DNA from: a bacterium
GTDB lineage: Bacteria; UBP6; JAFGXH01
DNA length: 32,000 nt
Assembly: GCA_027064085.1 (NCBI GenBank)
Contig: JAMOQH010000095.1
Span: 10,530-42,529 of the forward strand
Direction of reading: 5' to 3'
This document shows, one piece after another, positions 793 through 30,511 of the stretch. Position 1 is the stretch's first letter. The number at the start of each line of letters is the position of its first letter. The position numbers were made by a program, and so were the translations under genes. The notes beneath the pieces are model-generated. The model was not told the DNA's origin. It saw only the letters and a program-made list of their open reading frames with translations, and did no database searches.

Positions 793-897
793 TATTATTA
801 CCTCGTAAAATTAATTAATTTCAATCTTAATTAAAAGATTAGCTTACAAAATAGCAATTATTTATGAAAAATCAAGTTATTTATATAATCAGGAGGA

Positions 898-921
898 TTT
901 TTAAGCTTAAAATCTTAAAAA
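898..921 (+). repeat. Conserved-loop intergenic hairpin, copy 1 (TTTTTAAG|CTTAAAAT|CTTAAAAA)
   Basis: Perfect 8-bp inverted arms around an 8-nt loop. It shares the AG-CT(T)AAAAT-CT core with copies at 16143, 21992 and 30411. It contains the 14-bp perfect palindrome TTTTAAGCTTAAAA (899-912). Confidence 0.6.
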
Positions 922-926
922 TTGAA

Positions 927-965
927 AAATCAACTAATTTACTTTGTAAATGGATTTAATTTTTT
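927..965. terminator. Candidate bidirectional intrinsic terminator after the giant gene
   Basis: Inner stem ATTTAC(937-942)/GTAAAT(946-951) with loop TTT. Outer stem AAATC(927-931)/GATTT(953-957). The plus strand is followed by AATTTTTT; the minus strand is followed by TTCAATTTTT. The AT-rich stem is weak. Confidence 0.4.
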
Positions 966-3900
966 AGTAATTGCAATCTTCATCGTGACATAATGACATA
1001 TCATTACTGCTTCTAGGCATAATAACATAAGATGCATCATCAGATTTATCACCAGTTGTACAAATACCACCAGTGAGTTCATTAGTATTTTCACCATTTT
1101 CTAATGATAAACAAGTTTCAGCTCCATTACAATCAGTATTTTCGTTACAAGCGTCTTTACTTGCAGGAGAATTGTGTTCATATTTTAATACACCAGATAA
1201 AGTTCTTAAGGTTGTTTCATAATAATGACATTTACCTGCTCCACTATCATGACCTCTCACCATAATATGTTGACAATTATTATCACTAGTACAGTCATAT
1301 TCAGGCAATACAACAGGAGCACACTCACATATTTTACATAAAATAGGATTATAGTAATAAGCACAATTATCTTCATCATTCAGAAAATCATCACCGTCTA
1401 TATCCGGGTCACATTTATCGCCAATGTTATCACCATCAAAATCTGATTGAACAGGATTAAATACATTTGGACAATTATCAGAAACATCTTTTACACCATC
1501 CCAATCTTTATCACTAGTATAATCACATGCGTTACCCCAGTTTCCACTTCTTGGAGGAGGCATAGTTGCATTATATAATTTTTTACTATCTACAACACAA
1601 TCATCATTAATATCTAAATGATAACCACTATCACATGAACACTCTGCTACCCCCTGAATAACATTACAAATACTTTTATGACTTTCAGGACAAGTATTTG
1701 TTTCACATACTTCATCTATAATGCAACTATTTGCCACTCCATGGTAACCGCTATCACATGAACATTCTACTATTCCTCCAACAATATTACAAACAGTTTT
1801 ATGCTCTTCTGTGCAACTATCGTCTTCGCAAACTTCATCTATAACACATTCATTGTTTGCAAAATGGAAACCAGTATTGCATTCATCACAGTTGGCACCA
1901 CGATAGCCTTCATTGCAAGACCAATCACAACCAGTTATAGCATTCCAAGTACCGTCTTGATTTCTTGTAATAGTTCCATCACCATCTCCATTTAAACTTG
2001 CATTTGCAGGAATACTAGAAACATCACATGGTTTATCATAAGCTTGATCTAAATTTTCAACAGTTGGACAATTATCGTCTTCATTAACCCAACCGTCACC
2101 ATCTAAATCATTATCACAAGCATCACCTTTATTATCATGATCCATGTCTTCCTGATTTGGATTATAATCTAATATACAGTTATCAACACTATCTTTAACA
2201 CCATCATTATCTTGGTCATCAGTAGCTTGACAAGTATCCCCCACACCATTTTTATCTGTATCCTCTTGTATTAATTTAAACCCTCTTTTACAGTATTTAT
2301 TACAAGAAGTCCATGATTCCTTATTACAAGCATTATTTATACATTGTCCAGTACCTTTATTTAAAGAATAATCATTTGTTAATTCTTTATCAATATAGAA
2401 CTCTTCATCATAAGAATCTTTTAGTGTAGTTCTAAAATTATTAGAAGAAGCTGCATTTTCTATTACAGTATATGGTTTATTATCAACAGCGTTTATCAAT
2501 AATGATTCAAAACCTTCAGCTTTATTAGATTTATTTTTAAGTATTTGAGCAACTCTTATATCATAGTAATAAGGATCAAAAGGCTCTAGTTTTCTACAAA
2601 CATTATCTTCCAGATTACAATATTCATCACTTTTACAAACACTGCAATATTTCTCTTCATCTCCACTTCCACAAGGATAATGAGAATTTTCTTCATCACA
2701 ATAAACATTCATTCTATGAAAATAATCTTTTAAACTAATCGCCCTTGACATCCCGTAGTGATTTATGTATTCAACTGAAGTTATTATTTCATCGCCAGGT
2801 TTATAATCCTTATAGCTTTCATATTCGTCTTTACGAATAATTACATATATTCCTCTATATAAATAGGTACTTAAAGGACATAAGTCAATATTACTATCTG
2901 AATTTTGTTCACAACTTATAACTTCTCCATCATTATTATAAGTACAATTACAACCTCTAAAATAACCACCATCAACTTTGGGTGTTTGGGCATACAAATA
3001 AAACCCCAAACTTTTATTTATAGTATCATTATAAACGGCTAAAATTCTACCAGTAATACTATCTTTATATTTAGATGTTTTTATAGTGGTTTTATTATAC
3101 CCATGAAACTCTCTTATTTTATTAACTTCAGCTTGAACACAGTGCCCAGAAGCTTCTCCATCTTTTATTTCACATAAAGTAGAACCAGTTGCAGAATCTT
3201 CTATATTGGCAAAACAATCACTACTTCTATAACATGTTTTATATTCACAAACATGAGTTGTATTATTACATTGTTTATCATAACTACAATCTGTATTTTG
3301 ATTACAAGTACCATACACTAAAGAGCAACCAGACTCTAAACAAACTTCCCAAGGATTACAATTACCACATGAATTAGAAAAGTTTTCACATTGATGAGAA
3401 ACAGAACTACATAAAGAATATGCACCACAGTAATCATCTAAACTACAGTTAAAATTTGTTTCATCTGCAATACACATTCCATCCTTACAAATTTCCCAAG
3501 GTTGACATTCTACAAAACATTCATATTCATTTTTAACACAATCATGAAGCGAGGTATCACAAACTCTATCATCAGGACAATCACCATTATTATTACAAGC
3601 ATTTGTATCTAAAACACATTTCCAATTAGGGTCACAATGTTCCCAGTTATCACAGTCATCATCATCTTGACATGGTTTAGCAATTTCTTCTGATATACAA
3701 TCATGAGTTTCAGGGTCGCAAGTCATATTTCTTGGACAATCAGCTTTTACATTACATTTATCACTCATAAGCTCACAAGAATTAGTTTCAACAGAACAAA
3801 CTTCCCAAGAATCACATTCTGGAGTACAGCTGGAATTAACTTCAACACAGTTATGAGTATTTAAATCACAAGAAATTGAAGTTGTTTCATCAGTTGAGTT

Positions 3901-6900
3901 GCAACCATAATTTTCATATGGATTTTCACCTATATAAACCTGATCAGAACACCGTCCATCAGCTAACAAACATTTTTTGGCTTGATGAATGTGGTTATCA
4001 TTTTCATCATAATATGAGTAAACTTTACATTCTTCCCATTCATTACAAGGAGAATCACAGGCAAGCTTACAAGTATGAGTTTCTGTACTGCATTTTTTGC
4101 CACTTTCACAATTCAAATCACTCTCACATAATCCCTCAGTTAGTACACATTGACCATCATTACATTCTTGGTAATCAGCACATATAGGATTACATATTCT
4201 TTCACAACTATGCTCGGAATTACAAACTTGATTTTCTAAACAATCAGTAGTATTTCCACATCTGTTATCATCATTAACACACTCTCCTCTATCGTTACAG
4301 GATTCCCATGATTCACATACAGGATTACAAACAGCTACACATTCATGAGATAAAGGGTCACATGTTTTTACTCCATCACAATCAGAACTTGAATCACAAT
4401 GATCTTCTTTAGGAATACAGACATGACTACTTGAACAGTATTGCCATACTAAGCAATCATCATTATCAAAACATCCATTTGGCTGATCATTTACACAATT
4501 ATGATTTTCATTACATCTTTCATTATTGTTACATTGAGAATTATTCTCACAAAAGCCAGCATTTAGCTGACATTGCTCTGCTACACATCGTTCCCAGTCT
4601 TTACAATCTGGATTACAAACACTTCCATTTGGATTAGATTTACATGAATGACTACTTACATCACAATATTTATTGGACGGACAATCTCCTCCATCATTAC
4701 AACGATTAGAATTAACTAAACAATTATTACCACTACATATTTCCCATGCTTGGCAACTAACATTACAATTATTACTTTCGCATAGGTGACTTATTGCATC
4801 ACAACTTTCATTATTTTCACAATCATTATCATCGATACATCTATCATCTCTTGATTGACAATTATTACTAGAACATATTTCCCAAGGATTGCAAATAGGA
4901 TTGCAACCCGATGGGTCTGGATCTTGACATTCTTTATTTTTACAAACTTGCCCTCCACGACAATCACTTACATTAGTACAAGTTCCTTCTATATTTTTAC
5001 AAATATCACCTTCTGCACAATATTCCCATGATTTACAATCAGGAATGCAACTGTTTGATGGTTCTAATTTACAAGTATGACTCAATCTTGAACAATATTT
5101 ACCATCTCCACAATCATTATTCCTTAAACATCTTCCATTAGCTAATTCACATTGGTTAGTAATATTACATACTTCCCATGGTTTACAAAAAGGATCACAC
5201 GAATCTGAAGGATCCTCTTCACATGTATGAGTATCTAAATTACATGTAGCACTATATCCATAAGTTGTTCCACAATCTTCACTTCCATCACAATACTCTA
5301 TTTCTCCACAAGTATGATTTCTAGCATCACAAAATAATCCAGTTGCGCAATCAGAACTATCAGAACACCTATCTTCATTACTTGAGCAAGTTCCATCATT
5401 ATTACAAGTTTCCCAATCTTTACAAGAGGGAGTACAATTAGTATATTCACATAAATGACTTACTGAATTACACATTTTTCCATCTATACAATCATTATTT
5501 GAATCACATCTACCTGTTCTTACTTTACAATTGTTATTTGAACATACTTCCCAAGGATCACACAAAGGACTACATCCATTCGGGTCAGGCTCTTGGCATT
5601 CGTTATTATTGCAAACATCAGTTCCTGAACATTCACTAGTAGTAGAACAAGTTCCTTCTATTTTTTTACAAATATTACCCTCTGCACAATACTCTAAATC
5701 ACTACAAGCAGGAGCACAATCATTTGAAGGTTCATCCTTACAAGTATGAGTTAGCCTTGAACAATATTTACCATTTCCACATTCTGCATTAGTAGAACAT
5801 CTTCCGTCAGCCAATTCACATTGATTATTTATATTACACTCTTCATAAGGTTTACAAAATGGATCGCAATCACTTGATGGATCTTCTTTACAAACATGAG
5901 TAGTTAAATCACATGTGGCACTAAATCCGTATGTTGTTCCACAATCATCATCAGCATCACAAAAACCATCATTTACAGAACACTCTCCATTATCTTCACA
6001 AGTTCCCCAAGTATCACAATTTTCTGTACAATTATTTTCACATTTATGAGAACTTAAATCACATTTTTTACCATTTTTACAAGTTGAATCACTAGTGCAA
6101 TAATCATCATTATTTAAAATACAAGTTTTTCCATCAGGAGAACATTCCTCCCAATATTCACATTCTACTTCACATTCAGTTTCACATTTATGAGTCGCAA
6201 AATCACAAACAGAATCACCTAAGCAATCTTCAACTAAATTACAAGACCCCTGTGCTAGTTTACATCGACCATCTTCACAGTATTCCCATGAATTACAATC
6301 ATTATCTGTTTCACAAGCAGTATTATTTAGAGGTACACATTTATGTTCGGAATTACACTTTTCACCATTTGCACAATCAATATTTTCTGAACAATAGCCA
6401 ACAGCAGCAACACAGTTATCATGTCTATCACATGTTTGCCATAATTCGCATATTGGAGCACAAACACCAGGGTCCTTCTTACAAGTATGAGTATCGGGGT
6501 TACAAGTAAAACTAGTCGCTGTATTTCTTTCACAGCCTACTTTAGGATCACACCTTCCACTTGCAGTCACACAGGTTCCATCTTCATCACATGTTTGCCA
6601 GCCTTCACATTTAGGATTACAATTATCATATTCACATTTATGTTTATTATTACAAACTTGACCACTTTTGCAATCTGTAGCATCATTACAAAAATATCTG
6701 TCCTTGTCTGCCTTACAAACTTTATCTTCTGTACATATTTCCCATGAATTACACTCAGGTTGACAATTATATGTACATTTATGAGTTCTTGAGTCACATA
6801 TAGGCTTATCTTCTCCACAATCGTTATAAGTATTACAATATTCTTCTAGGGCAACACATTTATTGTTTAAATCACATCGCTCCCATGATTCACAACCAGG

Positions 6901-7149
6901 ATTACAACTTCCTAAACACCAATTTGTTTTCGTATCACAAGCCTGAGGATATTCACAATCTTGTTGAGCTTCACATCGACCTTCTTTAGGTAAACAACTT
7001 GATGTAACTTCCCCATAATCATCTTCAACAGAATTACATTGTTCCCAATCTTTACATTTTGGCTCACAATTTCCTATAGGTGTAACCGTATTACATGATT
7101 GAAAGTACAACAAGAAAAGCAGTATAAATGAAAAAAATAATTTCGCCAT
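964..7149 (-). CDS. Giant secreted cysteine-rich repeat protein with thrombospondin type-3-like and EGF-like modules (2061 aa)
   Basis: Uninterrupted 2061-aa ORF with an N-terminal hydrophobic signal (MAKLFFSFILLFLLYFQSC). About 25 tandem ~45-aa modules span aa ~28-1338, each with 8 Cys (CxPxCxxWExC..C..GxC....DC.....C....HxC). A Cys-poor insert covers aa ~1339-1600. TSP3-like DxDxDGxxDxxDNC repeats lie at aa 1629-1700 and 1876-1930. EGF-signature units lie at aa 1741-1851. An AGGGGG SD sits about 6 nt upstream of the ATG. Confidence 0.9.
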   Translation of the reverse strand: MAKLFFSFILLFLLYFQSCNTVTPIGNCEPKCKDWEQCNSVEDDYGEVTSSCLPKEGRCEAQQDCEYPQACDTKTNWCLGSCNPGCESWERCDLNNKCVALEEYCNTYNDCGEDKPICDSRTHKCTYNCQPECNSWEICTEDKVCKADKDRYFCNDATDCKSGQVCNNKHKCEYDNCNPKCEGWQTCDEDGTCVTASGRCDPKVGCERNTATSFTCNPDTHTCKKDPGVCAPICELWQTCDRHDNCVAAVGYCSENIDCANGEKCNSEHKCVPLNNTACETDNDCNSWEYCEDGRCKLAQGSCNLVEDCLGDSVCDFATHKCETECEVECEYWEECSPDGKTCILNNDDYCTSDSTCKNGKKCDLSSHKCENNCTENCDTWGTCEDNGECSVNDGFCDADDDCGTTYGFSATCDLTTHVCKEDPSSDCDPFCKPYEECNINNQCELADGRCSTNAECGNGKYCSRLTHTCKDEPSNDCAPACSDLEYCAEGNICKKIEGTCSTTSECSGTDVCNNNECQEPDPNGCSPLCDPWEVCSNNNCKVRTGRCDSNNDCIDGKMCNSVSHLCEYTNCTPSCKDWETCNNDGTCSSNEDRCSDSSDCATGLFCDARNHTCGEIEYCDGSEDCGTTYGYSATCNLDTHTCEEDPSDSCDPFCKPWEVCNITNQCELANGRCLRNNDCGDGKYCSRLSHTCKLEPSNSCIPDCKSWEYCAEGDICKNIEGTCTNVSDCRGGQVCKNKECQDPDPSGCNPICNPWEICSSNNCQSRDDRCIDDNDCENNESCDAISHLCESNNCNVSCQAWEICSGNNCLVNSNRCNDGGDCPSNKYCDVSSHSCKSNPNGSVCNPDCKDWERCVAEQCQLNAGFCENNSQCNNNERCNENHNCVNDQPNGCFDNDDCLVWQYCSSSHVCIPKEDHCDSSSDCDGVKTCDPLSHECVAVCNPVCESWESCNDRGECVNDDNRCGNTTDCLENQVCNSEHSCERICNPICADYQECNDGQCVLTEGLCESDLNCESGKKCSTETHTCKLACDSPCNEWEECKVYSYYDENDNHIHQAKKCLLADGRCSDQVYIGENPYENYGCNSTDETTSISCDLNTHNCVEVNSSCTPECDSWEVCSVETNSCELMSDKCNVKADCPRNMTCDPETHDCISEEIAKPCQDDDDCDNWEHCDPNWKCVLDTNACNNNGDCPDDRVCDTSLHDCVKNEYECFVECQPWEICKDGMCIADETNFNCSLDDYCGAYSLCSSVSHQCENFSNSCGNCNPWEVCLESGCSLVYGTCNQNTDCSYDKQCNNTTHVCEYKTCYRSSDCFANIEDSATGSTLCEIKDGEASGHCVQAEVNKIREFHGYNKTTIKTSKYKDSITGRILAVYNDTINKSLGFYLYAQTPKVDGGYFRGCNCTYNNDGEVISCEQNSDSNIDLCPLSTYLYRGIYVIIRKDEYESYKDYKPGDEIITSVEYINHYGMSRAISLKDYFHRMNVYCDEENSHYPCGSGDEEKYCSVCKSDEYCNLEDNVCRKLEPFDPYYYDIRVAQILKNKSNKAEGFESLLINAVDNKPYTVIENAASSNNFRTTLKDSYDEEFYIDKELTNDYSLNKGTGQCINNACNKESWTSCNKYCKRGFKLIQEDTDKNGVGDTCQATDDQDNDGVKDSVDNCILDYNPNQEDMDHDNKGDACDNDLDGDGWVNEDDNCPTVENLDQAYDKPCDVSSIPANASLNGDGDGTITRNQDGTWNAITGCDWSCNEGYRGANCDECNTGFHFANNECVIDEVCEDDSCTEEHKTVCNIVGGIVECSCDSGYHGVANSCIIDEVCETNTCPESHKSICNVIQGVAECSCDSGYHLDINDDCVVDSKKLYNATMPPPRSGNWGNACDYTSDKDWDGVKDVSDNCPNVFNPVQSDFDGDNIGDKCDPDIDGDDFLNDEDNCAYYYNPILCKICECAPVVLPEYDCTSDNNCQHIMVRGHDSGAGKCHYYETTLRTLSGVLKYEHNSPASKDACNENTDCNGAETCLSLENGENTNELTGGICTTGDKSDDASYVIMPRSSNDMSLCHDEDCNY
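1360..2265 (-). other. Eukaryote-like adhesion cassette inside the giant gene: TSP3 block / EGF-like units / TSP3 block
   Basis: TSP3-like block at 2050-2265 (DQDNDGVKDSVDNC..DHDNKGDACDNDLDGDGWVNEDDNCP). EGF-like units at 1597-1929 (SCNEGYRGANCDECNTGFHFANNEC; two tandem 40-aa units ending CSCDSGYHGVANSC and CSCDSGYHLDINDDC). TSP3-like block at 1360-1524 (DKDWDGVKDVSDNCPNVFNPVQSDFDGDNIGDKCDPDIDGDDFLNDEDNC). Confidence 0.7.
4774..5292 (-). repeat. Segmental duplication, copy B (aa 620-792 of the giant protein)
   Basis: The block CDGSEDCGTTYGYSATCNLDTHTCEEDPSDSCDPFCKPWEVCNITNQCELANGRC... is collinear with copy A at an offset of 223 aa. The DNA is visibly similar but diverged. Confidence 0.75.
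5443..5961 (-). repeat. Segmental duplication, copy A (aa 397-569 of the giant protein)
   Basis: The block CDADDDCGTTYGFSATCDLTTHVCKEDPSSDCDPFCKPYEECNINNQCELADGRC... is collinear with aa 620-792. It is far more similar to that block than to other modules. Confidence 0.75.
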
Positions 7150-10030: not shown

Positions 10031-10888
10031 CTACTTTTTATAATCTAATGGGTCTTTTACCAAAAGATTAATTTCATATTCGCTTCCTAATTTACAATTA
10101 TAACAAAAGTCAATGTATTCGCCAAATCTATTATCTTTTATTATAGACTTTATAATATCTAAAATTGTTTTATTTATACCAAATGTATCTTTATAATACT
10201 TAATATGCTCAAAAGATGCATTCCTAGCAGTTTTAAGACACGCTTTATCACAAATATCAATAGGTTTATCCAATTGAACTTTTAATGGAGCATTTGTAAT
10301 CATATATGACATCAATAGCCTTGGACCATTTTTAACAGTTATAGGAAAACCATTTGGTGCAATATCTCCTAAATGAGAAGCTTTAAATATTTCATTCTTA
10401 TCAAAATTTTTAAATAAAAACTCATTATTTAAATCTTCAGGAATTCCCCAGTATCCATATTTAGATAATGCATGTAAAAGTAAGTTGTCCGTTTTATCCT
10501 TTTCTAACTTTAGTGATTTGAAATAATTGTTAATATCATTAACAGAAAATTTAAATATAGATTTTGGAATAGGTATATAATAAACAATTATGGATTTAGC
10601 TTCTTTTGTAAAAAAGTTTTCTTTTTTTAATAATTCAGAAATTTTTATTGGCAATTTTTTAATTAGCTTATTATCAGTTTCCTCTATTTTTTCCAATAAA
10701 GTCTTTTTTATAAAAGCAGTATTAAAAGCAGTATAACTAATCTCTAATAAGTTACTTGGATTTGCCAATTTATTAATCTCTTGAATTAAATGATGCATTC
10801 CAACAGGTTTATGCTTTTTGGTGGAAAACTCTTTTAAATCTCCAAGCATTTTATCTTTCCAATTATCAACAACATGCAAGTCTTCCAT
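10031..10888 (-). CDS. Hypothetical protein (285 aa) with a C-terminal 4-Cys cluster
   Basis: Long ORF with an AAGGGGG SD upstream of the ATG. CDKAC ... CYNC may form a zinc-binding pair. I recognise no family. Confidence 0.6.
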   Translation of the reverse strand: MEDLHVVDNWKDKMLGDLKEFSTKKHKPVGMHHLIQEINKLANPSNLLEISYTAFNTAFIKKTLLEKIEETDNKLIKKLPIKISELLKKENFFTKEAKSIIVYYIPIPKSIFKFSVNDINNYFKSLKLEKDKTDNLLLHALSKYGYWGIPEDLNNEFLFKNFDKNEIFKASHLGDIAPNGFPITVKNGPRLLMSYMITNAPLKVQLDKPIDICDKACLKTARNASFEHIKYYKDTFGINKTILDIIKSIIKDNRFGEYIDFCYNCKLGSEYEINLLVKDPLDYKK

Positions 10889-14121: not shown

Positions 14122-15049
14122 AATTATTGATAAGCAATTATTAATAAGAAAAAAATTTAATAAAAAAAGAAAAGCTTTATCTCCATATAGTTTAATGTAT
14201 GAACCTAACATAGATAATTTTGATAACGACTTTAATTTATTTGAAAACAATAATAGATTTTTAAATTTTTACTCAACATACGGAATTAACTTAGCATTAA
14301 AAGAATATGGAATAAAAAAGATACTTAAAAAACAAGGTTTTGAAAATATACTTTATAAAATAAATAAAAATGACTACACTCATACACTTAGTATCTATAA
14401 TGAAGAAATAAATTCAGACCATTTAATATCACAACTAGTTATAACTTTAGATACTAATATATGTTTTTCATATAAAAACTGTAAATCAATGACTATTGAG
14501 TGGTTAAATTTACAAGACTACAGAAAAGTTTTCACAAAGGAAAGAATGAAGCTTCCAGGTCAAAGGTTTCCAGGTTTAGGTTTCGGATTATTAGCATTTG
14601 AACTAATAATACAAATAGCAAGAAGGCTTAATGTTAGATATTTAGTTAATACCCCAAATCATTTTCATAACGCATATATTTATTCTAATTACTTTTCTTT
14701 TAGAAATCCAAACAATAAAGCATGTATTGATATATTAATTTCAGAATTTGAAGGATTATCTCTAGCCTCTTTATCATGGTTAATATATAACGAAACACTA
14801 ATAGAAACAAACAATAAGAAAACTTTTAAATGGACTCCTGATATTATGATTATGCCTGTTTATAGATATAAAGATTTTAACAACTATTTTAAAACAAAAG
14901 AATATCAAGATAGGTACAAGCTATTTTTATCAAGTCATAGTTATAAAATAGACAGCAAAAAGTTTTATAAAAATAAAGATAAATTTCCTAAAATGATACT
15001 TAAAGATATAGAAGAGTACAAAAAAAGAGAAACTCTCAGATTTATTTAA
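14027..15049 (+). CDS. Hypothetical protein downstream of the HDAC; start ambiguous
   Basis: The maximal ORF overlaps the HDAC by 95 nt. Alternative starts are ATG 14060 (AGGAGG only 2 nt upstream) and ATG 14195 (no SD). The LPGQRFPGLGFGLLAFELIIQIARRL segment weakly resembles a GNAT Q/RxxGxG acyl-CoA motif. Confidence 0.6.
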   Translation: MFRLLHYPQEVMVLNLGKYITTLLNTAYFIDKIIDKQLLIRKKFNKKRKALSPYSLMYEPNIDNFDNDFNLFENNNRFLNFYSTYGINLALKEYGIKKILKKQGFENILYKINKNDYTHTLSIYNEEINSDHLISQLVITLDTNICFSYKNCKSMTIEWLNLQDYRKVFTKERMKLPGQRFPGLGFGLLAFELIIQIARRLNVRYLVNTPNHFHNAYIYSNYFSFRNPNNKACIDILISEFEGLSLASLSWLIYNETLIETNNKKTFKWTPDIMIMPVYRYKDFNNYFKTKEYQDRYKLFLSSHSYKIDSKKFYKNKDKFPKMILKDIEEYKKRETLRFI

Positions 15050-15594
15050 AAATCAGTAAAATAATACCATACGCCTGGACTAACTCTTACATTATCCTTT
15101 TCCTGTTTCTTTAAAAAATCATTAACCTCTTCTTTTTTTAATAAAAAAACTTCTATATTTTCACTGAGTTCAAGTTCCTGAATAGGATTTAAGTTTTCTT
15201 TTAGTGTTTCGTCAACCTCCATTGTTACAACCTGAAATGTTGCATCAGTCATTGCCGGATTCATGTCTAAAATAGAACTTACCTTTATTATTTTTCCCGA
15301 GGTAAATCCTGTTTCTTCCTTTAACTCCCTAATTGCATCTTTTGTCACATCAGAATCTTCAACAAGACCAGCCGGAAATCCAATTACAAAATGGCCAACA
15401 GCGGCTCTATATTCCCTTATAATGATAAATCTATTTGAGGGTACTAATTTTGCTATGATAACAACAGCATGTCTTAAATTTTTTCTTCTTACGAAATCCC
15501 AACCATAAGTTTTACCATTTTCATGCTTCCAATTTGCTTTTAAAAGTTGCAACCAGTCACTTTCATATAATAATGTTTCTGATATTTTTTTCAT
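15046..15594 (-). CDS. NUDIX hydrolase (ADP-ribose pyrophosphatase-like)
   Basis: The Nudix box GFPAGLVEDSDVTKDAIRELKEETGF fits GX5EX7REUXEEXGU. 182 aa. Confidence 0.85.
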   Translation of the reverse strand: MKKISETLLYESDWLQLLKANWKHENGKTYGWDFVRRKNLRHAVVIIAKLVPSNRFIIIREYRAAVGHFVIGFPAGLVEDSDVTKDAIRELKEETGFTSGKIIKVSSILDMNPAMTDATFQVVTMEVDETLKENLNPIQELELSENIEVFLLKKEEVNDFLKKQEKDNVRVSPGVWYYFTDF

Positions 15595-15855
15595 AAATAA
15601 TTCCTAATAAATCATACTAATAGATACAAGTATATAACTTTAGAACATAAAATTCCATTTTTAAATTATAAGTTGAAAAGATTAAAAGCTAATTCTTGCT
15701 AATTTTTTCATTTTTTTATATTTCCTACAGAGTATTCCTAGTAACTTCATGTTCTGACTTATCTTCTATTATTTCAACAGCAGGAGAAGGTGTTGTTGGA
15801 GAAGGTGAAATTACACTCTTTATCAAGTGTGAGTAACAACAGGATAAAATAATTA

Positions 15856-16017
15856 CTAAATAGCCCCTGCAATAGTTGGGCAACTATGCCCGGATGCTTT
15901 AACAATATCTAAATAACTAAACTCAATTAAACCATTCTCAAAAGTTCCTAATAAATCTGAAAGACCATCTTGGAGCTTGATTGTTTCTATTTTTCTAAAA
16001 AATTCTGGATATATCAT
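15856..16017 (-). CDS. Short ORF (53 aa from the SD-preceded ATG), probably a truncated remnant of a GHxCP (FmdE-like) protein
   Basis: MIYPEFFRKIETIKLQDGL...ASGHSCPTIAGAI is followed by a double stop (TAG TAA). An AGGAGAGG SD precedes ATG 16017. The other two frames stay open downstream (15725-15855). Confidence 0.35.
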   Translation of the reverse strand: MIYPEFFRKIETIKLQDGLSDLLGTFENGLIEFSYLDIVKASGHSCPTIAGAI

Positions 16018-16068
16018 ATAAATACCTCTCCTAATGATAACCATGTGAAAAAGTATCACCATAAAGTA

Positions 16069-16097
16069 AACATAACCTTATTAATTAAATTTCGCAA
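16069..16097 (-). promoter_or_regulatory. Candidate promoter (TTGCGA-17-TATGTT) of the short ORF
   Basis: On the minus strand, TTGCGA (16097-16092), a 17-nt spacer, then TATGTT (16074-16069). It uses the same -35 hexamer as the giant-gene candidate. Confidence 0.3.
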
Positions 16098-16142
16098 GAA
16101 AATAATAAGTTAAGAGTTTTCCTGTCCCAAAAATTGAGCGAC

Positions 16143-16167
16143 AATTTTGAGATTTTAGCTCAAAATT
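16143..16167 (-). repeat. Conserved-loop intergenic hairpin, copy 4 (AATTTTGAG|CTAAAAT|CTCAAAATT on the minus strand)
   Basis: Perfect 9-bp arms around the invariant 7-nt loop. One arm can alternatively pair with AAAATTG at 16130-16136. Confidence 0.6.
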
Positions 16168-16239
16168 CAATAAAAAATAAATTTTACTATCATAAAATTA
16201 TATTTTTAATTTTTATTTATACTTCTAAGTAAATATTAT

Positions 16240-16269
16240 TTGACAATTTCCCTTGAAAAGTCTTAAAAT
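16240..16269 (+). promoter_or_regulatory. Candidate sigma70 promoter of parA (TTGACA-18-TAAAAT)
   Basis: Perfect -35 TTGACA at 16240-16245 and TAAAAT at 16264-16269, about 30 nt upstream of ATG 16298. Confidence 0.45.
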
Positions 16270-16297
16270 ATGTCTTGAAATATTTTTTGGAGAAAAG

Positions 16298-17080
16298 ATG
16301 ACCAAAGTAATATCTATCGCAAATCAAAAGGGTGGAGTTGGTAAAACGATAACAGCTATTAATTTATCAAGTTTTTTAACAATATTGAATAAAAAAGTTC
16401 TTTTAATTGATATGGACCCTCAAGGCCATAGTGGAATTGGACTTGGAATTGACATTGAAGACGAAGATTATTCAACAACTTACGACTTATTAATAAATAA
16501 AGATAAAACCCTAGATGATTGTGTTACAGAAATTGATATTAAAGATAAAACTTTGGATTTAGTCATTTCCAATGTGGAATTAAGCTATGCAGAAAGGGAG
16601 TTAGAAAAACTATATCGTTCTCCAATACAAATATTAAAGAAAAAGTTAAAACCTGTAGTTAAATCAAAAGTATATGACTATATAATTATAGATTGTCCTC
16701 CATCATTAGGTAATTTAGCAATTAATGCATTTTTATCATCAGACACAATTATTGTCCCTGTTGCAACATCATTTTTTTCATTGCATGGAGTAGAAAAAAT
16801 TGCAGGTACGCTAAACGAAATTATGGATGAATTAGAAATTGAATTTAATATATTTGGCTTGTTAACTAGGTATAGAAGAAACCAAAATGTTTCTCATGAA
16901 GTCCATCAAACAATGAAAGAATACTTTAATAATAATATGTTTAAAACAGTTATAAGAGAAAATATTGATTTGGAAAAGGCTATTGGTGAAGGTTTGCCAA
17001 TTTGTGAATACAAAAAATCATCAAACGGTTATTTAGATTATAAACGACTAGCTATGGAGATAATGAGTTATGGCAACTAA
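16298..17080 (+). CDS. parA: ParA/Soj-family partition ATPase
   Basis: The deviant Walker A is IANQKGGVGKTIT, followed by LLIDMDPQG and IIIDCPPSLG. I prefer ATG 16298 (GGAG about 7 nt upstream) over TTG 16253. Confidence 0.9.
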   Translation: MTKVISIANQKGGVGKTITAINLSSFLTILNKKVLLIDMDPQGHSGIGLGIDIEDEDYSTTYDLLINKDKTLDDCVTEIDIKDKTLDLVISNVELSYAERELEKLYRSPIQILKKKLKPVVKSKVYDYIIIDCPPSLGNLAINAFLSSDTIIVPVATSFFSLHGVEKIAGTLNEIMDELEIEFNIFGLLTRYRRNQNVSHEVHQTMKEYFNNNMFKTVIRENIDLEKAIGEGLPICEYKKSSNGYLDYKRLAMEIMSYGN

Positions 17081-18284
17081 GAAAAAGAAAGCTAAAAGAG
17101 GTAATAAGGTAAAAAAAGGTGGATTTTTTAAAGAAAAAGGGGGCTTATTTAATCAAACTACAGATGAAACAGTTAATCCTACTAAAAAATTTATCAAAAA
17201 TGTCTCTGATGATGAAAATATCGAATTAACAGAAAGTGGAAAATCTCATTTCGAAACGGTAAAAAAACAAAAATTTATAGAATCAATGGAACCTGCAATA
17301 TTATTAGATAATTTATTTAATGAATTTGAATTGATAAAAATAAATAACTCTTTATTTCTTGAACTAGAAAATAATGAACAAATTTATGAAGGTGTAAAGT
17401 ATTACCTAAAAGAAAAAGAAAATATTTGGCTATTTTTTGAAGATAAAGCAATTATGCTTGATTATGCTCTTATGGAGGAGTTAAGTTTTAATTATGAATC
17501 AGAAAATATTCTAAAATACTCTCCAACGATAGTAAATAATAAAATATTTTTTATTGCAAATAAAGAAATACACATCTATAACTTAACAGAAGAAACATGG
17601 ATGCACTACTCTATTTCAGGAGAAACAACATCTTCTGCGATAGTAAATGACGAAAAGATTTTTTTGGTAATTGATTTTACTAAACTCGTTTGTTTAAATG
17701 AAAACTTTAAGGAAGAGTGGTCTTTTATTACTGAGGGATATTTATTAAACACTCCAACTATAGACGATTTTTTATACATCACATCTAGTGATGGAATGTT
17801 ATACAAACTTGATAAAGAAGGTGATATAATTTGGTCTTTTAATTCTAAAAGCTCTCTAGAAACACCTCCAATCTTATTTAAAGATATAGTTGTAATTAAT
17901 TCAATGGCAGGTAAGTTATTTTTCATATCAAAAGAAGATAAAAGAGAGCTAGCTATTATTGATTTAGGTTTTCACTTACTAAATAAACCAGCAATCAAAA
18001 ATAATGTTCTTTATGCATTTAACAGAAGATTCATTTATAAAGTGGATTTGGTGAATTATAAAATTCTTGACATACTTATGCTTGAAGAACCTATAGAATC
18101 AATTTCTAGCCTAGACGATTATTTGCATATAAAAACTAAAAATTCAAAAAGTCTCATCCTAGATGAAACATTTACAAATATAAATATAACAAATTTTAAA
18201 TCAAGTAAGTCTCCAATTCAACATGTTAACTTTTTATTATCTATTGATGAAAATTATAGTTTATTAAAAACTGAAATAGTTTAA
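17070..18284 (+). CDS. Beta-propeller (PQQ/BamB-like repeat) protein with a Lys-rich N-terminal tail
   Basis: The ATG overlaps the parA 3' end by 11 nt. The N-terminus is MATKKKKAKRGNKVKKGG. Repeated blades include SDGMLYKLDKEGDIIWSF and NNVLYAFNRRFIYKVDL. Confidence 0.7.
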   Translation: MATKKKKAKRGNKVKKGGFFKEKGGLFNQTTDETVNPTKKFIKNVSDDENIELTESGKSHFETVKKQKFIESMEPAILLDNLFNEFELIKINNSLFLELENNEQIYEGVKYYLKEKENIWLFFEDKAIMLDYALMEELSFNYESENILKYSPTIVNNKIFFIANKEIHIYNLTEETWMHYSISGETTSSAIVNDEKIFLVIDFTKLVCLNENFKEEWSFITEGYLLNTPTIDDFLYITSSDGMLYKLDKEGDIIWSFNSKSSLETPPILFKDIVVINSMAGKLFFISKEDKRELAIIDLGFHLLNKPAIKNNVLYAFNRRFIYKVDLVNYKILDILMLEEPIESISSLDDYLHIKTKNSKSLILDETFTNINITNFKSSKSPIQHVNFLLSIDENYSLLKTEIV

Positions 18285-18287
18285 ACA

Positions 18288-18755
18288 CTATAAATTATCT
18301 TCTAGAAAACTTAATATTAAGTCATCTAGATTATCTTCACTAGCTTTTTTATTTTTATCAAGAATTGATTTTTGTTTATCTTCTATAAGGTGGGCAGTAT
18401 GCTTTTTTTTATCTTGTTCAATAATATTTAAATCATCTTTTGAAGAAAGATTCTCTATTTTTTTTATTTTAGATGATTTCATATGCTCAAGCATTTTATC
18501 AATTTCTTTATCATACTTAGAGCTCAAAAGACCTTTTAAAACGGATTTATGTTGCTGTTCCATCATGGATTTTACAACATTTCTAAGTTGGGGAGCATTT
18601 ACAACATTTTTATAAGAATTCTTTACAGAAATAATAATATTACCACCAATAAAAAGATGTGTAATAATATGTGCTATCTCTTCTCCACTATCCTCAGTTT
18701 GGACATGGAATACAATATCTTTATATTTTATATTGTGATTAAAACCTGTAATCAT
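18288..18755 (-). CDS. Hypothetical protein with an N-terminal FHVQTEDSG motif
   Basis: 155-aa ORF. The compact N-terminal domain (IVFHVQTEDSGEEIAHIITHLFIGGNII) is followed by a charged tail. I cannot name the family. Confidence 0.6.
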   Translation of the reverse strand: MITGFNHNIKYKDIVFHVQTEDSGEEIAHIITHLFIGGNIIISVKNSYKNVVNAPQLRNVVKSMMEQQHKSVLKGLLSSKYDKEIDKMLEHMKSSKIKKIENLSSKDDLNIIEQDKKKHTAHLIEDKQKSILDKNKKASEDNLDDLILSFLEDNL

Positions 18756-18809
18756 TAAATACCCCTAATACTTTTATACTATCAAAAAAGATATATGATA
18801 TCAAGTTAT

Positions 18810-19583
18810 TTAAAAATTAATTATATTTTTTATTTCTTTAATAAAAGTGGAGTTATTTAATAAAATGTCAATACCCGTGTAATCACTTGTTGAGTCTATC
18901 ATTGTTTTTAGATTATCATAATTGTAAATGTATAGTTGTTCATTTAAATCTTTAAAGTCTTTTTTAGAATATAAAAACAAGTATTTAGAATTATCACAAT
19001 ATTTATTAAATTCATCTACTGACATTTCATCTGAAAACATCTTAGGTGAAATCATTATAAAAGAGCTATTTACTTGACAATAATTAACTGATGAATACAA
19101 AGAAATATTCGCACCCAAACCGTCACCAATGAAAACAATATTTTTAAATTTACTTTCATTACTATTTTGGGCAAAATTTACAATCAACTTTAAATCATCT
19201 TTCATTTTAGCAATTGTTGAATAACTAGATGCTTGACTTTTACCAAATCCTCTTAAATCATAGGAAACTATATTATAATTTAGTTCAAGAAAGATATCCA
19301 TTAAGATATCCCATTCTTCTAAACTACTATCTTCTTTATGAGATAAAACAATAAGTCCTTCATTATTTTTTTTATGGTATAAACGATAGTAAAGATTACT
19401 ATTATCATTTGTATTTATATATCCCTCTTGAAAGCTATAATCGTTACTTAAACTTAAGGGGTCTACATCATCTTCATTATTATAAGAAGATGTATCATTA
19501 TAGAGCTCATTATTTATTTCATTACCACTTTGTGAGCAAGAGATAAGCAACATACTTATTATCAAAAAAATCATTATCTTCAT
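18810..19583 (-). CDS. Lipoprotein with an alpha/beta-hydrolase fold that lacks the catalytic Ser and His
   Basis: Signal plus lipobox MKIMIFLIISMLLISC. DLRGFGKS matches the hydrolase scaffold. The nucleophile elbow reads GDGLG instead of GxSxG. There is no His in the C-terminal ~170 aa. Confidence 0.7.
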   Translation of the reverse strand: MKIMIFLIISMLLISCSQSGNEINNELYNDTSSYNNEDDVDPLSLSNDYSFQEGYINTNDNSNLYYRLYHKKNNEGLIVLSHKEDSSLEEWDILMDIFLELNYNIVSYDLRGFGKSQASSYSTIAKMKDDLKLIVNFAQNSNESKFKNIVFIGDGLGANISLYSSVNYCQVNSSFIMISPKMFSDEMSVDEFNKYCDNSKYLFLYSKKDFKDLNEQLYIYNYDNLKTMIDSTSDYTGIDILLNNSTFIKEIKNIINF

Positions 19584-19639
19584 AATAACCTCAAATACCT
19601 ACCTAATTTTATAGTAAAAAAGAAAAAAATCAAGTTATC

Positions 19640-19668
19640 TTGACAAAAAAAAATATTTAGTTTAATCT
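19640..19668 (+). promoter_or_regulatory. Candidate promoter (TTGACA-17-TAATCT)
   Basis: Perfect TTGACA at 19640-19645 and TAATCT at 19663-19668, 26 nt upstream of ATG 19694. Confidence 0.4.
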
Positions 19669-19693
19669 AGCATTTGTTTTGTGAGGATTTTAC

Positions 19694-20512
19694 ATGAAAA
19701 CTGTAGTATTTTTAAAATTTAATGAAGAAAGAAAGGATACAATAACAAATCTGTTAAAAGAAACTGATTATAAATTAGTCTTTTTAGATTCAACAGAAGA
19801 TTTATTTGAAAATATTTTCAATAATGATCAAAAATATATTTCAATATTTATAGCTGATGACATAGAAGAAATAAATGGAATCATTTTAGAGATTAAAACT
19901 CATTTAAAACTATCATTAAATGTTATAAAATATAAAAATGAAAATTTAAGTGAACTAGAAATAGATAATTTTATATCAGAAACCGCCACTAAAGAGGAAT
20001 ATCTATCACTACTCAGAGGAGCTAAAAAGATAACAGAACTTTTAGATACTAGTATTGATATAAGTAATAACTTTTACCATTTTGAATTTTTTAAAAGGAT
20101 AATACATATTGAAATAAAAAGGGCTAAAAGATATGGTATTGAATTAGCTCTCTTGTATTTAACTTTTAATAATGCAGACGAAATAAACAATAACTCAAAA
20201 GAACAATTTGAGTCATTATTTAGAGAATTTAACGCAGCCGTTACAACATCAATCAGAGATATTGATATCCCTATTGCTTTTGGAGAAGAGGCTATCCTTT
20301 TAATGATGCCACATACAAATAAAGGTGGAGCAAATATTGTGGCAGAAAGAATATATTCTAAATTAACAAAGAATGCCCAATCAATAAATTTTTCAATTTC
20401 TATTGTTTCACCTAAAAAAGAAGATTTAAACTTTTCAATAATGATGAAAATGATACATGAAGGTATAGAAGAATCCGTTAAAAAAGGTGGAAAATCTATT
20501 ATTGTAGAATAA
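19694..20512 (+). CDS. Pseudo-receiver plus degenerate GGDEF domain protein
   Basis: The C-terminal domain aligns by eye to GGDEF (RDIDIPIAFGEEAILLMMPHT..GGANIVAERI). The signature reads FGEEA, and the DxD metal site is replaced (LLYLTFNN). The N-terminal REC-like domain lacks the acidic DD pair. Confidence 0.7.
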   Translation: MKTVVFLKFNEERKDTITNLLKETDYKLVFLDSTEDLFENIFNNDQKYISIFIADDIEEINGIILEIKTHLKLSLNVIKYKNENLSELEIDNFISETATKEEYLSLLRGAKKITELLDTSIDISNNFYHFEFFKRIIHIEIKRAKRYGIELALLYLTFNNADEINNNSKEQFESLFREFNAAVTTSIRDIDIPIAFGEEAILLMMPHTNKGGANIVAERIYSKLTKNAQSINFSISIVSPKKEDLNFSIMMKMIHEGIEESVKKGGKSIIVE

Positions 20513-20658
20513 AAATAATTCTCAGTTTAATTCTTAATAAAATATTAAATTAATAAAATCTAATACTGTTATACTAGTATTATCATTATGTTACAACAAT
20601 ATCCCTATTCAAATTTTATCAAGATTTAATATTTTTACTAAATAATAAAAATTACTAC

Positions 20659-20686
20659 TTGACATTTATTATTAAATAGCTATAAT
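20659..20686 (+). promoter_or_regulatory. Consensus sigma70 promoter of ahpC (TTGACA-16-TATAAT)
   Basis: Both hexamers are perfect (20659-20664 and 20681-20686). The inverted repeat TTATTAT(20666-72)/ATAATAA(20682-88) spans the spacer and the -10. Confidence 0.6.
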
Positions 20687-20719
20687 AAGTGTGTTGTGTA
20701 AAACTAAAGGAGGTTAAAC

Positions 20720-21442
20720 ATGGCATGTGATAAACCGCAAAGTGTGGAAGTAACAGAAATAAACAAACAAACTAATTTAACAGAAGTTTCAGAGAATGAA
20801 ACATTAAACATGGAGGAAAATATGAGTGGAGTATTAGTATTAAAACCAATGCCTGAATTTAAAATGGAAGCTTATAATGCAAAAACTGGACATTATGTAG
20901 AAGTAAGTAGCGAACAACATTCAGATAAATGGAGAGTGATTTGTTTTTACCCTGCAGATTTTACTTTTGTTTGTCCAACTGAAATAGCTGCGATGAATGC
21001 ATCATTAAAAGTTATAGAAGATGAATTAGGATGCGAAGTTTTAGCTATCTCTACTGATACAAAATTTTCTCATAAAAGATTTGTTGAAACTGAGCCTTTA
21101 TTAAAAGGTTTACAGTTAACTATGGCTGCTGATACAACTGGTGAAGTAGCTCAAAAATTTGGTGTACTAATTGAAGGAGCTGGATTAGCCCTTAGAGGTA
21201 GATTTTTAGTTAACCCTGCGGGAATAGTTGTGGCTCAAGAAGTTCAATCTCCTGCTGTTGGTAGAAGCGTTAAAGAATTTATTAGACAGATTAGAGCACA
21301 TCAAGCTGCTGAAAAAACTGGTGATGTTTATCCTGCTGGTTGGAAACCAGGTAAAACTGTTCTTCCTGTATCAACAGATGCCGAAAAAATGACTGGAAAT
21401 GTAGGTTCTTATATAACAATTGAAGAAATTATGGCTGATTAA
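20720..21442 (+). CDS. ahpC: Peroxiredoxin, AhpC/Prx1 (typical 2-Cys scaffold) with an N-terminal extension and no resolving Cys
   Basis: The peroxidatic motif is FYPADFTFVCPTE. The C-terminal region TGDVYPAGWKPG matches the canonical GEVCPAxWK with Tyr in place of Cys. There are two in-frame starts, each with a strong SD (AAGGAGG-6-ATG at 20720; GGAGG-5-ATG at 20822). Confidence 0.9.
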   Translation: MACDKPQSVEVTEINKQTNLTEVSENETLNMEENMSGVLVLKPMPEFKMEAYNAKTGHYVEVSSEQHSDKWRVICFYPADFTFVCPTEIAAMNASLKVIEDELGCEVLAISTDTKFSHKRFVETEPLLKGLQLTMAADTTGEVAQKFGVLIEGAGLALRGRFLVNPAGIVVAQEVQSPAVGRSVKEFIRQIRAHQAAEKTGDVYPAGWKPGKTVLPVSTDAEKMTGNVGSYITIEEIMAD

Positions 21443-21483
21443 CTACTAAAAACTTATTTTTAAGTTATTGTATTATAAAAAAG

Positions 21484-21522
21484 GGGTATTTCAGTTATTG
21501 ATGTAATTGATACCCTTTTTTT
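21484..21522 (+). terminator. Rho-independent terminator after ahpC
   Basis: The interrupted 12-bp stem pairs GGGTAT..CAGTTA with TAATTG ATACCC around a 6-nt loop. A T7 run follows at 21516-21522. Confidence 0.65.
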
Positions 21523-21542
21523 ATTATTTTATGAAGGAAAAT

Positions 21543-21944
21543 ATGGATAAATTAACTTCAACGTCTATGCAAGAGCTACTAAAAGCTCAAGGCTTAAAGG
21601 CTACCCCACAAAGATTAGCTATACTCAAAGAAATAGCTAAAGAAGGACATATCTCCGTTGATAACATTTATTTAAAAATAAAAAATAATTTTCCATCAAT
21701 ATCCCTTGCAACAATATATAAAAATATTAAGTCGATGAAAGATGCTGAAATCATTTATGAAATAAATACCCAAGATTCAAAGCCAAAGTATGAAATAAAG
21801 AAAAAAACTCATGCTCATTTTATATGTCAACTATGTAACTCTGTAGAAGATATGGAAATAAACAAAGATGACTTCAAAAATTATGGTGATATTAATGAAA
21901 TTGATTTGTATCTATATGGTATTTGTAAAAAGTGTAAGATTTAA
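21543..21944 (+). CDS. Fur-family metalloregulator (PerR-like by context)
   Basis: The wHTH region is ATPQRLAILKEI. It has an HAHF motif and two CxxC pairs (CQLC, CKKC). I prefer ATG 21543 (AAGGA upstream) or 21531; the TTG at 21507 lies inside the terminator. Confidence 0.85.
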   Translation: MDKLTSTSMQELLKAQGLKATPQRLAILKEIAKEGHISVDNIYLKIKNNFPSISLATIYKNIKSMKDAEIIYEINTQDSKPKYEIKKKTHAHFICQLCNSVEDMEINKDDFKNYGDINEIDLYLYGICKKCKI

Positions 21945-21991
21945 TTACTCTTTATGGCTTGTTTCAACCAAGCAAAGCTTGTTTTCCACAA

Positions 21992-22016
21992 AAATTAAAG
22001 CTAAAATCTTTAATTT
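21992..22016 (+). repeat. Conserved-loop intergenic hairpin, copy 3 (AAATTAAAG|CTAAAAT|CTTTAATTT)
   Basis: Perfect 9-bp arms around the invariant loop. It lies 48 nt after the Fur-family gene's stop and 27 nt upstream of the candidate nagZ -35. Confidence 0.6.
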
Positions 22017-22042
22017 GAAAATATAAAAATAAAAAATAAATA

Positions 22043-22071
22043 TTGATTATAATTCGTTAAATTCATATACT
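22043..22071 (+). promoter_or_regulatory. Candidate nagZ promoter (TTGATT-17-TATACT)
   Basis: Hexamers at 22043-22048 and 22066-22071. The predicted leader is about 60 nt, with an AGGAG SD before ATG 22139. Confidence 0.35.
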
Positions 22072-22138
22072 TACTTATAGGTTACAAAGTTGTATCTATA
22101 CTGCAACTATCAATTATAGAATAATCTGTAGGAGAAAA

Positions 22139-30325: not shown

Positions 30326-30410
30326 TATTCCTCCAAAATATAAAAATCATATAATTAAAAAATTAACATAATTTAAAGCTAAAAAGCAAGGTTTTATTAG
30401 ATATTTACTA

Positions 30411-30433
30411 TTTTTAAGCTAAAATCTTAAAAA
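30411..30433 (+). repeat. Conserved-loop intergenic hairpin, copy 2 (TTTTTAAG|CTAAAAT|CTTAAAAA)
   Basis: The arms are identical to copy 1 and the loop is the invariant 7-mer. It lies in a divergent intergenic region. Confidence 0.6.
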
Positions 30434-30442
30434 CAGACATTC

Positions 30443-30469
30443 AAACACTAAAACTAGTGTTTTCATTTT
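30443..30469 (+). other. Second hairpin next to copy 2 (AAACACTA-AAAC-TAGTGTTT) followed by TCATTTT
   Basis: A perfect 8-bp stem at 30443-30450/30455-30462 with a 4-nt loop. It is terminator-like yet lies between divergent genes, so it may be the 3' end of a small transcript. Confidence 0.35.
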
Positions 30470-30511
30470 AAAATTTAACTAATTTACTAAATAAATTATT
30501 TAAATTTTGAT

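Follow-up and report, generated by a model that had tools for sequence, protein, structure and literature searches.

Gene Setting and Architecture of Four Intergenic Palindromes

The 32,000-nt stretch of DNA analysed here (the window; positions 10,530 to 42,529 of contig JAMOQH010000095.1, from a bacterium of the UBP6 lineage) contains four copies of a short palindrome, each built of inverted arms around a shared centre and each lying between genes. The window belongs to a metagenome contig of 41,981 bp (ENA ERZ27262656 k141_416270) from an uncultured bacterium, and the G+C content of the source DNA is ~27%. The contig genes are ordinary chromosomal ones, among them folE2 and those for SecG, a NUDIX hydrolase, a peroxiredoxin, NagZ, cytochrome bd, TPR proteins and XseA; there are also genes for a 2061-aa thrombospondin-repeat protein, an orphan ParA-like ATPase and a Fur-family regulator. 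Transposase and recombinase genes were absent from the genes of the 42-kb contig, and so was any Y1 transposase. Of the ~11 intergenic regions of the source contig that exceed 100 nt, four hold a palindrome. The evidence base throughout is these four copies and two orthologues from a sister species, and every promoter named is a prediction.

All four copies, which an earlier reading of the window (the original prediction) had placed correctly in coordinates and strand and had rightly called intergenic, are perfect inverted repeats with arms of 8-9 bp, located between open reading frames (Table 1). In copies 2-4, the element spans ~25 nt and consists of the inverted arms around a fixed, asymmetric 7-bp centre, CTAAAAT; the core of copy 1 is AGCTTAAAATCT, that is, it carries a 1-nt insertion. 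The arms follow the consensus ATTTTTRAG, with four variable positions at which each change is mirrored in the opposite arm. The original prediction had opposed this pattern to that of a classical operator, in which the arms are conserved and the spacer is free, a contrast that was overstated, as the arms are not free but adhere to the consensus. Copy 1 is flanked by the stop codon of the 2061-aa TSP_3 gene on one side and by the folE2 promoter on the other. Copy 3 lies 3′ of the terminator-like hairpin of the Fur-family gene, and the −35 element of nagZ starts 26 nt further on.

When five copies were aligned with 70-nt flanks, no position outside the ~25 nt was conserved, except in a block common to copies 1 and 2. 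These 43-nt blocks give a local alignment score of 39, compared with 18.7 ± 3.2 for shuffled sequences, and none of 2000 shuffles matches it. No similarity was detected between the other flank pairs of the copies, and on the promoter side the flanks of copies 1-3 could not be aligned (z ≤ 1.2). The copies are singlets spaced at least 5.8 kb apart, with no second copy nearby in a covariance search. Their stems hold one or two G:C pairs, and the calculated hairpin energies are correspondingly modest, −4 to −7 kcal/mol for DNA and −3.7 to −7.5 kcal/mol for RNA.

Table 1. Palindromes, neighbouring promoter-like sites and second shared blocks in the window. Palindromes are written as arm, centre, arm; promoter-like sites as −35-like hexamer, spacer length, −10-like hexamer
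Feature	Coordinates (strand)	Sequence	Setting or distance	Covariance model score (bits)
Copy 1	897..922 (+)	ATTTTTAAG - CTTAAAAT - CTTAAAAAT	centre of 8 nt (one extra T)	33.1
Copy 2	30410..30434 (+)	ATTTTTAAG - CTAAAAT - CTTAAAAAC	between the divergent TPR-protein gene and xseA	39.7
Copy 3	21992..22016 (+)	AAATTAAAG - CTAAAAT - CTTTAATTT		39.3
Copy 4	16143..16167 (−)	AATTTTGAG - CTAAAAT - CTCAAAATT	between an fmdE-like pseudogene and parA	41.9
folE2 promoter-like site	848..875 (−)	TTGATT-16-TATTTT	22 nt after copy 1 (centre read ATTTTAAG)	
TPR-gene promoter-like site	30360..30389 (−)	TTGCTT-18-TAATTT	21 nt after copy 2	
Promoter-like site by copy 3	21942..21971 (−)	TTGGTT-18-TAATTA	21 nt after copy 3; prediction	
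parA promoter-like site	16240..16269 (+)	TTGACA-18-TAAAAT	73 nt after copy 4, same relative orientation	
Second shared block, copy 1	922..964 (+)		beside copy 1 (TTGAAAAATCAACTAATTTACTTTGTAAATGGATTTAATTTTT); AT-rich imperfect palindrome overlapping the TSP_3 gene end	
Second shared block, copy 2	30467..30508 (+)		33 nt past the copy 2 palindrome, immediately 5′ of the xseA promoter; 83% identity to relative B	

Recurrence and Covariation of the Family

The window has three exact occurrences of the 11-mer AGCTAAAATCT, against 0.05 expected from dinucleotide shuffles, none of 100 shuffles reaching three, in line with the earlier rough estimate of well under one occurrence. As each copy moreover lies within a perfect palindrome, a chance origin was rejected. 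Recurrence as such is less telling, since 32 11-mers with at least three G/C recur at least three times in the window (~6 in simulations), several of them in overlapping runs; it is the combination of palindrome and intergenic position that sets AGCTAAAATCT apart from the other repeated 11-mers. Perfect hairpins (stem of at least 8, loop of 3-9) number 18 in the window, and the palindrome family accounts for four of the seven that are intergenic.

Covariation was assessed on a gap-free alignment of four members, namely three window copies and the orthologue of copy 2 in a sister species, relative B (GCA_054075425.1). In this alignment, 97% of cells are paired and four of the nine pairs have changed on both sides; one shuffle in 500 scores as well, and registers slid along the alignment give at most 69% paired. 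A covariance model made from the same four sequences and run with filters off recovers copies 1-4 at 33-42 bits, the other hits in the window being reverse strands and noise at 21 bits or less. No other convincing copy was found by this model in the 42-kb contig or in ~107 kb from relatives, except for the two orthologues in relative B. The arms thus covary as first described, and the orthologues extend the pattern: ATTTTTAAG/CTTAAAAA in the window corresponds to ATTTTTGAG/CTCAAAAAT in relative B, around the same centre. The palindrome family is real, undescribed and lineage-restricted.

Constant Spacing to Promoter-like Sites

Reading the copies in the orientation that gives the centre ATTTTAG, we found that three of the four lie 21-22 nt upstream of a −35-like TTGNTT hexamer, so that the original prediction was wrong in stating that their positions relative to promoters are not constant. 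In relative B, the gap to the −35-like hexamer is 23 nt for the orthologue of copy 1 and 21 nt for that of copy 2. The gap at copy 4 equals 21 + 52 nt, i.e., about five helical turns more. With the transcription start taken 7 nt after the −10 element, the palindrome centres fall at about −68.5, −69 and −69 for copies 1-3 and at about −121 for copy 4. The generic pattern TTGNNN-N16-18-TANNNT occurs at only 0.0022 per position, so that a promoter-like match inside a 4-nt window on a given side of three of four copies greatly exceeds chance expectation. For copies 1-3, the predicted core promoter stands at a constant distance, helical phase and orientation, as is characteristic of promoter-upstream regulator sites. 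Furthermore, two of the three putative promoters are supported by the conservation of both hexamers in relatives; the hexamers and the 21-nt gap at the TPR gene are kept in relative B although the intervening sequence is 47% identical. A different arrangement, in which the TAAAAT of the loop would itself be a −10 box, was rejected, there being no TTG-type −35 element 17 nt upstream in any copy.

Our preferred reading, which we put forward tentatively, is that the palindrome is a promoter-upstream protein-binding DNA element of predicted function. The ~25-bp DNA site would lie upstream of sigma-70-type promoters in a constant orientation and on a constant helical face, the adjacent hexamers being real promoters, and a sequence-specific DNA-binding protein would bind the palindrome and act on the adjacent promoter, so that binding would change transcription. 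Either a dimeric regulator or a bending protein of the IHF type might serve as the binder, with an action resembling that at a class I activator site or at a LysR-type recognition site near −65. Arm symmetry may result from selection for a symmetric or hairpin-forming site, or from neutral homogenisation via template switching.

Class I activator sites of CRP are centred at −61.5 or −71.5, and the recognition sites of LysR-type transcriptional regulators lie near −65. The palindromes resemble such sites in being ~22-25 bp long, centred 60-70 bp upstream of the start and on a fixed helical face, and in having one more site that is in phase, several helical turns farther upstream (copy 4). They differ in the odd length (7 bp) of their invariant centre and in arms that always change together, and no regulator was found with them. 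To our knowledge, the consensuses of CRP, FNR, Fur/PerR/Zur, CodY, IHF, LexA variants, CtrA, KorB, hix and HspR HAIR all fail to fit. The HspR HAIR operator, CTTGAGT-N7-ACTCAAG, lies upstream of chaperone genes and has TTGAG and CTCAA 9 nt apart; it was rejected as a match, the two being 7 nt apart here and TTGAG being present only in copy 4 and in the relative B orthologue of copy 2.

Several observations weigh against a promoter-upstream binding site. The more specific pattern TTGNTT-N16-18-TAWTTW, which has 10 occurrences on both strands of the 32-kb window, three of them the sites by copies 1-3, was defined post hoc from those three cases. The −35/−10 core of folE2 is kept in two relatives (L143 and L148), both without the palindrome, and the nagZ and parA core promoters are kept in a third (L122) without copies 3 and 4; as the promoters exist in relatives that have no palindrome, the element is dispensable for promoter existence. 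The site by copy 3 would direct antisense transcription into the 3′ end of the Fur-family gene, and the promoters are predicted rather than mapped. A dimeric regulator alone leaves the coupled change of both arms unexplained, and the extra inter-arm base of copy 1 is of a kind that usually impairs binding of a dimer to double-stranded DNA. A candidate for the binding protein was not found, and the sample is small (four copies, two orthologues).

If the promoter link is true, the palindrome marks co-regulated or co-organised promoters in a lineage known from metagenomes only, and would provide a direct handle on the reader protein and on the definition of its regulon without cultivation.

A separate perfect palindrome, AATCTT-TTAATT-AAGATT, lies at 824-841, between the folE2 −10 box and the start codon, and may be a 5′ untranslated region stem or an operator. 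Different palindromes, AACTAA-TGTT-TTAGTT and TACCG-N10-CGGTA, occupy the same place in L143 and L148. folE2 is often Zur-controlled.

Conservation, Loss and Decay in Relatives

Orthologous regions were fetched via protein look-ups. Relative B, in which FolE2, XseA and the DnaJ-like protein are 94%, 84% and 80% identical to those of the source, is syntenic at two of the palindrome sites, and both of these comparable sites are retained. Copy 1 is unchanged there (L147; L169 16268-16293), which says little because the surrounding intergenic region is 93% identical. The orthologue of copy 2, upstream of xseA (L160 9850-9874), reads ATTTTTGAG - CTAAAAT - CTCAAAAAT and differs by one double change of A:T to G:C: the palindrome is 22/25 identical (88%), two of the three differences forming one complementary pair. 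Its flanks are less alike, with 8/17 identical positions (47%) in the 17 nt towards the −35 hexamer and 69% identity over 36 nt on the opposite side. Such a pattern, with the palindrome kept and the flanks diverged, is as expected for a constrained element.

The same comparison bears on the idea that the copies are functionless palindromes from one ancestor, their arms kept symmetric by template-switch mutation during replication. Template switching is able to homogenise arms (PMC8794818, PMC8604942, PMC7202029), the element is dispensable in relatives and the hairpins are weak, all of which this idea accommodates. However, centre and arms are kept between the source and relative B while flanks are 47-69% identical, and neutral decay does not predict a constant distance and orientation to promoter-like sites; we consider a lack of function quite improbable.

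Beyond relative B, the copies are missing or decayed. L122 (NagZ 88% identical) is syntenic over window positions 15046-23140, without copies 3 and 4. It lacks a ~88-nt block between the Fur-family gene and nagZ, inside which copy 3 lies, and a ~555-nt stretch upstream of parA, which holds copy 4. In L158/L159 (XseA 90% identical), the right arm of copy 2 is present and the left arm is degraded. Two lineages with FolE2 ~90% identical have a different upstream gene and no copy 1, and no family member was found in the more distant relatives examined. Within this sample, the family is thus specific to the source and relative B, the other relatives having either no copies or a decayed one, and it is dispensable.

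The ~88-nt block corresponds exactly to the −10 and −35 elements, the 21-nt gap, the palindrome and 8 more nt, and is what would be expected if the palindrome belonged to a small mobile or duplicating promoter-carrying cassette, comparable to a Correia element, in which the palindrome, together with an outward promoter or with other modules, spreads or is lost as a block. The second 43-nt block common to copies 1 and 2, on the far side of the palindrome, also fits a cassette, as does the patchy presence among close relatives, where the differences come with insertions or deletions. Correia elements are Neisseria miniature inverted-repeat transposable elements (MITEs) with promoters and an IHF site; like them, the palindrome is a small intergenic repeat tied to promoter hexamers and is gained or lost as a block beside gene ends. 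Unlike them, it has no terminal inverted repeats or TA duplication, its conserved part is ~25 nt and its promoter-side flanks are non-homologous. More generally, the terminal inverted repeats and target-site duplication that bound a full-length-conserved unit in MITEs were not found, and the 88-nt block is without terminal inverted repeats or a clear target-site duplication. The promoter-side flanks of copies 1-3, not being alignable, the presence of a folE2 promoter without palindrome in L143 and L148, and the lack of a transposase on the 42-kb contig likewise speak against a cassette, which we regard as rather unlikely.

Restriction of the family to the source and one sister species, together with the decayed copy in L159, would also suit a repetitive extragenic palindromic (REP)-like hairpin read in single-stranded DNA by an HUH protein (a REP-associated tyrosine transposase (RAYT) or IS200/IS605-type protein) or by a similar protein, with its gene elsewhere in the genome, and with promoter proximity incidental and the element selfish or domesticated. 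The four copies in 32 kb, all intergenic, do form a multi-copy short extragenic palindrome with covarying arms and an invariant centre, and the compensatory stems, the patchy distribution and the mosaic with other motifs at copies 1 and 2 are further likenesses to REP, BIME and REPIN sequences. However, three hallmarks of the REP-like role proposed in the original prediction are missing: a conserved stem-foot tetranucleotide (GTAG-like), inverted doublets and a RAYT gene nearby, neither a RAYT nor a Y1 transposase being present on the 42-kb contig. With their AT-rich stems, the hairpins are weak (−4 to −7 kcal/mol), and the copies lie upstream of promoters, whereas REPs lie in transcribed 3′ regions. 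Classical REPs, as far as is known, avoid regions between divergent promoters, and two of the four copies are in such regions. Furthermore, random insertion does not predict a constant promoter spacing. A REP-like origin is unlikely.

The copies border blocks in which the relatives differ, in keeping with site-specific recombination. The architecture of 9 + 7 + 9 bp, with its invariant asymmetric centre in copies 2-4, is reminiscent of tyrosine recombinase core sites of the lox, FRT or att type, which have inverted arms of ~9 bp around an identical asymmetric spacer of 6-8 bp serving as the crossover region, and the similarity of L159 to copy 2 degrades at the palindrome centre. The L159 sequence is equally readable as point-mutational decay, however, and the sites are dispersed among essential genes, with a centre of another length (8 nt) in copy 1 and no recombinase gene on the contig. 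Having four such sites, in both orientations, among the housekeeping genes of a 32-kb stretch would risk lethal rearrangements, and recombination sites are highly improbable.

Three observations were made in the DNA around these comparisons. Within the stretch missing in L122, the window holds at 15600-16062 (−) a frameshifted remnant of an FmdE-domain gene (MIYPEFFRKIETIKLQDGL...SGHSCPTIAGAI, followed by broken frames). In relative B, an FmdE-domain gene stands at a contig edge beside a Crp-family regulator (L160 1-575; 773-1468). Elsewhere in relative B (L169 1-2441), a TIR/ThsB-like gene cluster, with Thoeris-type defence domains, adjoins the region syntenic with the source contig.

A Probable DNA Site Rather than an RNA Structure

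Copies 2 and 4 lie between divergent predicted promoters, copy 3 follows a terminator-like hairpin with a T-run and copy 1 separates a weak terminator-like palindrome from the folE2 promoter. If the promoters are where they are predicted, all four copies fall outside the mRNAs, and their orientations to neighbouring genes are mixed. A scan against Rfam, one of the checks suggested in the original prediction, gave no match to any described family, either at gathering thresholds or at an E value of up to 1. A DNA-level element is favoured over an RNA, because the copies lie outside predicted transcripts in mixed orientation, the hairpins are weak and Rfam has no match.

An RNA hairpin, whether a protein-binding stem-loop, a small-RNA module or an element of an untranslated region, would account for covarying arms around an invariant loop. 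Copy 2 is followed by a terminator-like hairpin and T-run (30443-30470), and a joint transcript of ~60 nt is conceivable. However, relative B keeps that second hairpin only in part, there is no convincing promoter upstream of any copy in motif orientation, and the copies sit after terminators or between divergent promoters, facing both ways. A stability of −3.7 to −7.5 kcal/mol and the empty Rfam search point in the same direction. The RNA-module role suggested for the palindromes is weakened by their location in probably untranscribed DNA and by their facing both ways relative to genes, and we give it little probability. That they are not ordinary terminators was borne out: a G+C-rich stem with a direct T-run, as in intrinsic terminators, is absent, and no copy is among the listed terminator-like sites. 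The accompanying statement, that neither orientation has a T-run following, is right for copies 1, 2 and 4 but fails at copy 3, which runs into TTTTTG on the minus strand.

The compensatory arms had been taken as a pointer to a selected hairpin. Template switching during replication makes the two arms of an inverted repeat alike and can yield compensatory-looking double changes without selection (PMC8794818, PMC8604942, PMC7202029), so that this pointer is weaker than was assumed (PMC8794818, PMC8604942). Because template switching mimics compensation, covariation cannot separate a selected hairpin from a double-stranded site that has been made symmetric by mutation. The mirrored variation nevertheless argues that intrastrand pairing matters at some stage, and the extra centre base of copy 1, kept in the source and in relative B alike, is fitted slightly better by a hairpin than by a rigid dimer site. 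As a caution for other cases, compensatory arms in an intergenic palindrome alone do not indicate RNA structure; promoter and terminator positions and template-switch mutation need to be weighed before such a structure is claimed.

A DNA hairpin or cruciform offers another route to the same pattern, in which a structure-specific protein would recognise the single-stranded CTAAAAT loop upstream of active promoters. The extruded stem would sit where negative supercoiling accumulates, and this would explain both the invariant centre and the compensatory arms. Hairpin-dependent promoter recognition is known in phage N4, of which this would be a chromosomal, host-encoded counterpart. We think this variant quite unlikely, and retain the promoter-upstream protein-binding element as the preferred reading.

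Two neighbouring structures are recorded here. At 30443-30470, 9 nt past copy 2 and between the divergent genes, the second perfect hairpin, AAACACTA - AAAC - TAGTGTTT, is followed by TCATTTT; it looks like a terminator without a gene to terminate, part of which is conserved in relative B. At 21955-21985, 3′ of the Fur-family gene, GCTTG, CAAGC and GCTTG allow two alternative pairings, the second one followed by TTTT. This layout resembles an attenuator and is within the 88-nt block missing in L122.

Wider Searches and Look-alikes

Scanning species-representative genomes with TTWRAGCTAAAATCTYWAA returned at least 117 loci, nearly all single matches in unrelated taxa. Among the matches listed, 36 of 118 are complementary at both variable positions, compared with ~25% by chance. 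A widespread conserved motif was rejected, as the listed matches amount to background, in a scan that may not have reached the source lineage. Viral contigs gave three matches, which is chance level; plasmids and phages gave none, and a literature search by sequence returned primers only.

Matches in Nitrospirota MAG138 (L012, L031, L036 and L089) were rejected as relatives, since they belong to a different structured repeat of ~150 nt that shares the loop by chance. This MAG138 (JBFMAM01) repeat, of at least ~150 nt, contains ACCCCGTTAGAGCTAAAATCTCTAACGGGG and is found on several short contigs of one metagenome-assembled genome; it could be a mobile-element RNA or an assembly-breaking repeat. 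In Arcobacter sp. 31_11_sub10_T18 (L059 2031-2073), AAGCTAAAATCTCTAAACCAAT occurs twice, 24 nt apart in direct orientation, which suggests a short tandem repeat.

Two look-alikes nearer to the family were also rejected. A candidate fifth copy on the source contig outside the window (L120 16256-16281; 23 bits) does not fold, and its counterpart in relative B is no more of a palindrome. The right half of this candidate includes a −35-like hexamer, TTGAAA, upstream of the dnaJ-like gene, and the candidate is treated as a coincidence or a co-opted remnant. The 16-bp perfect palindrome at 28350-28384, with a 3-nt loop, contains AAAATCTTTA and is listed as terminator-like, but it is not palindromic in relative B, lies inside the gene for a 691-aa TPR protein, where it encodes AAKDFFEKSLAA; it is probably a coincidence of that peptide.

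Among the genes themselves, the 2061-aa protein encoded at 964-7149 of the window has thrombospondin type 3 repeats, which are eukaryote-like adhesion domains, and a 677-aa protein encoded at L120 18596-20629 has EGF and PLD domains, likewise of eukaryote-like adhesion type. Such large adhesion-domain proteins are unusual content for a small AT-rich bacterial genome.

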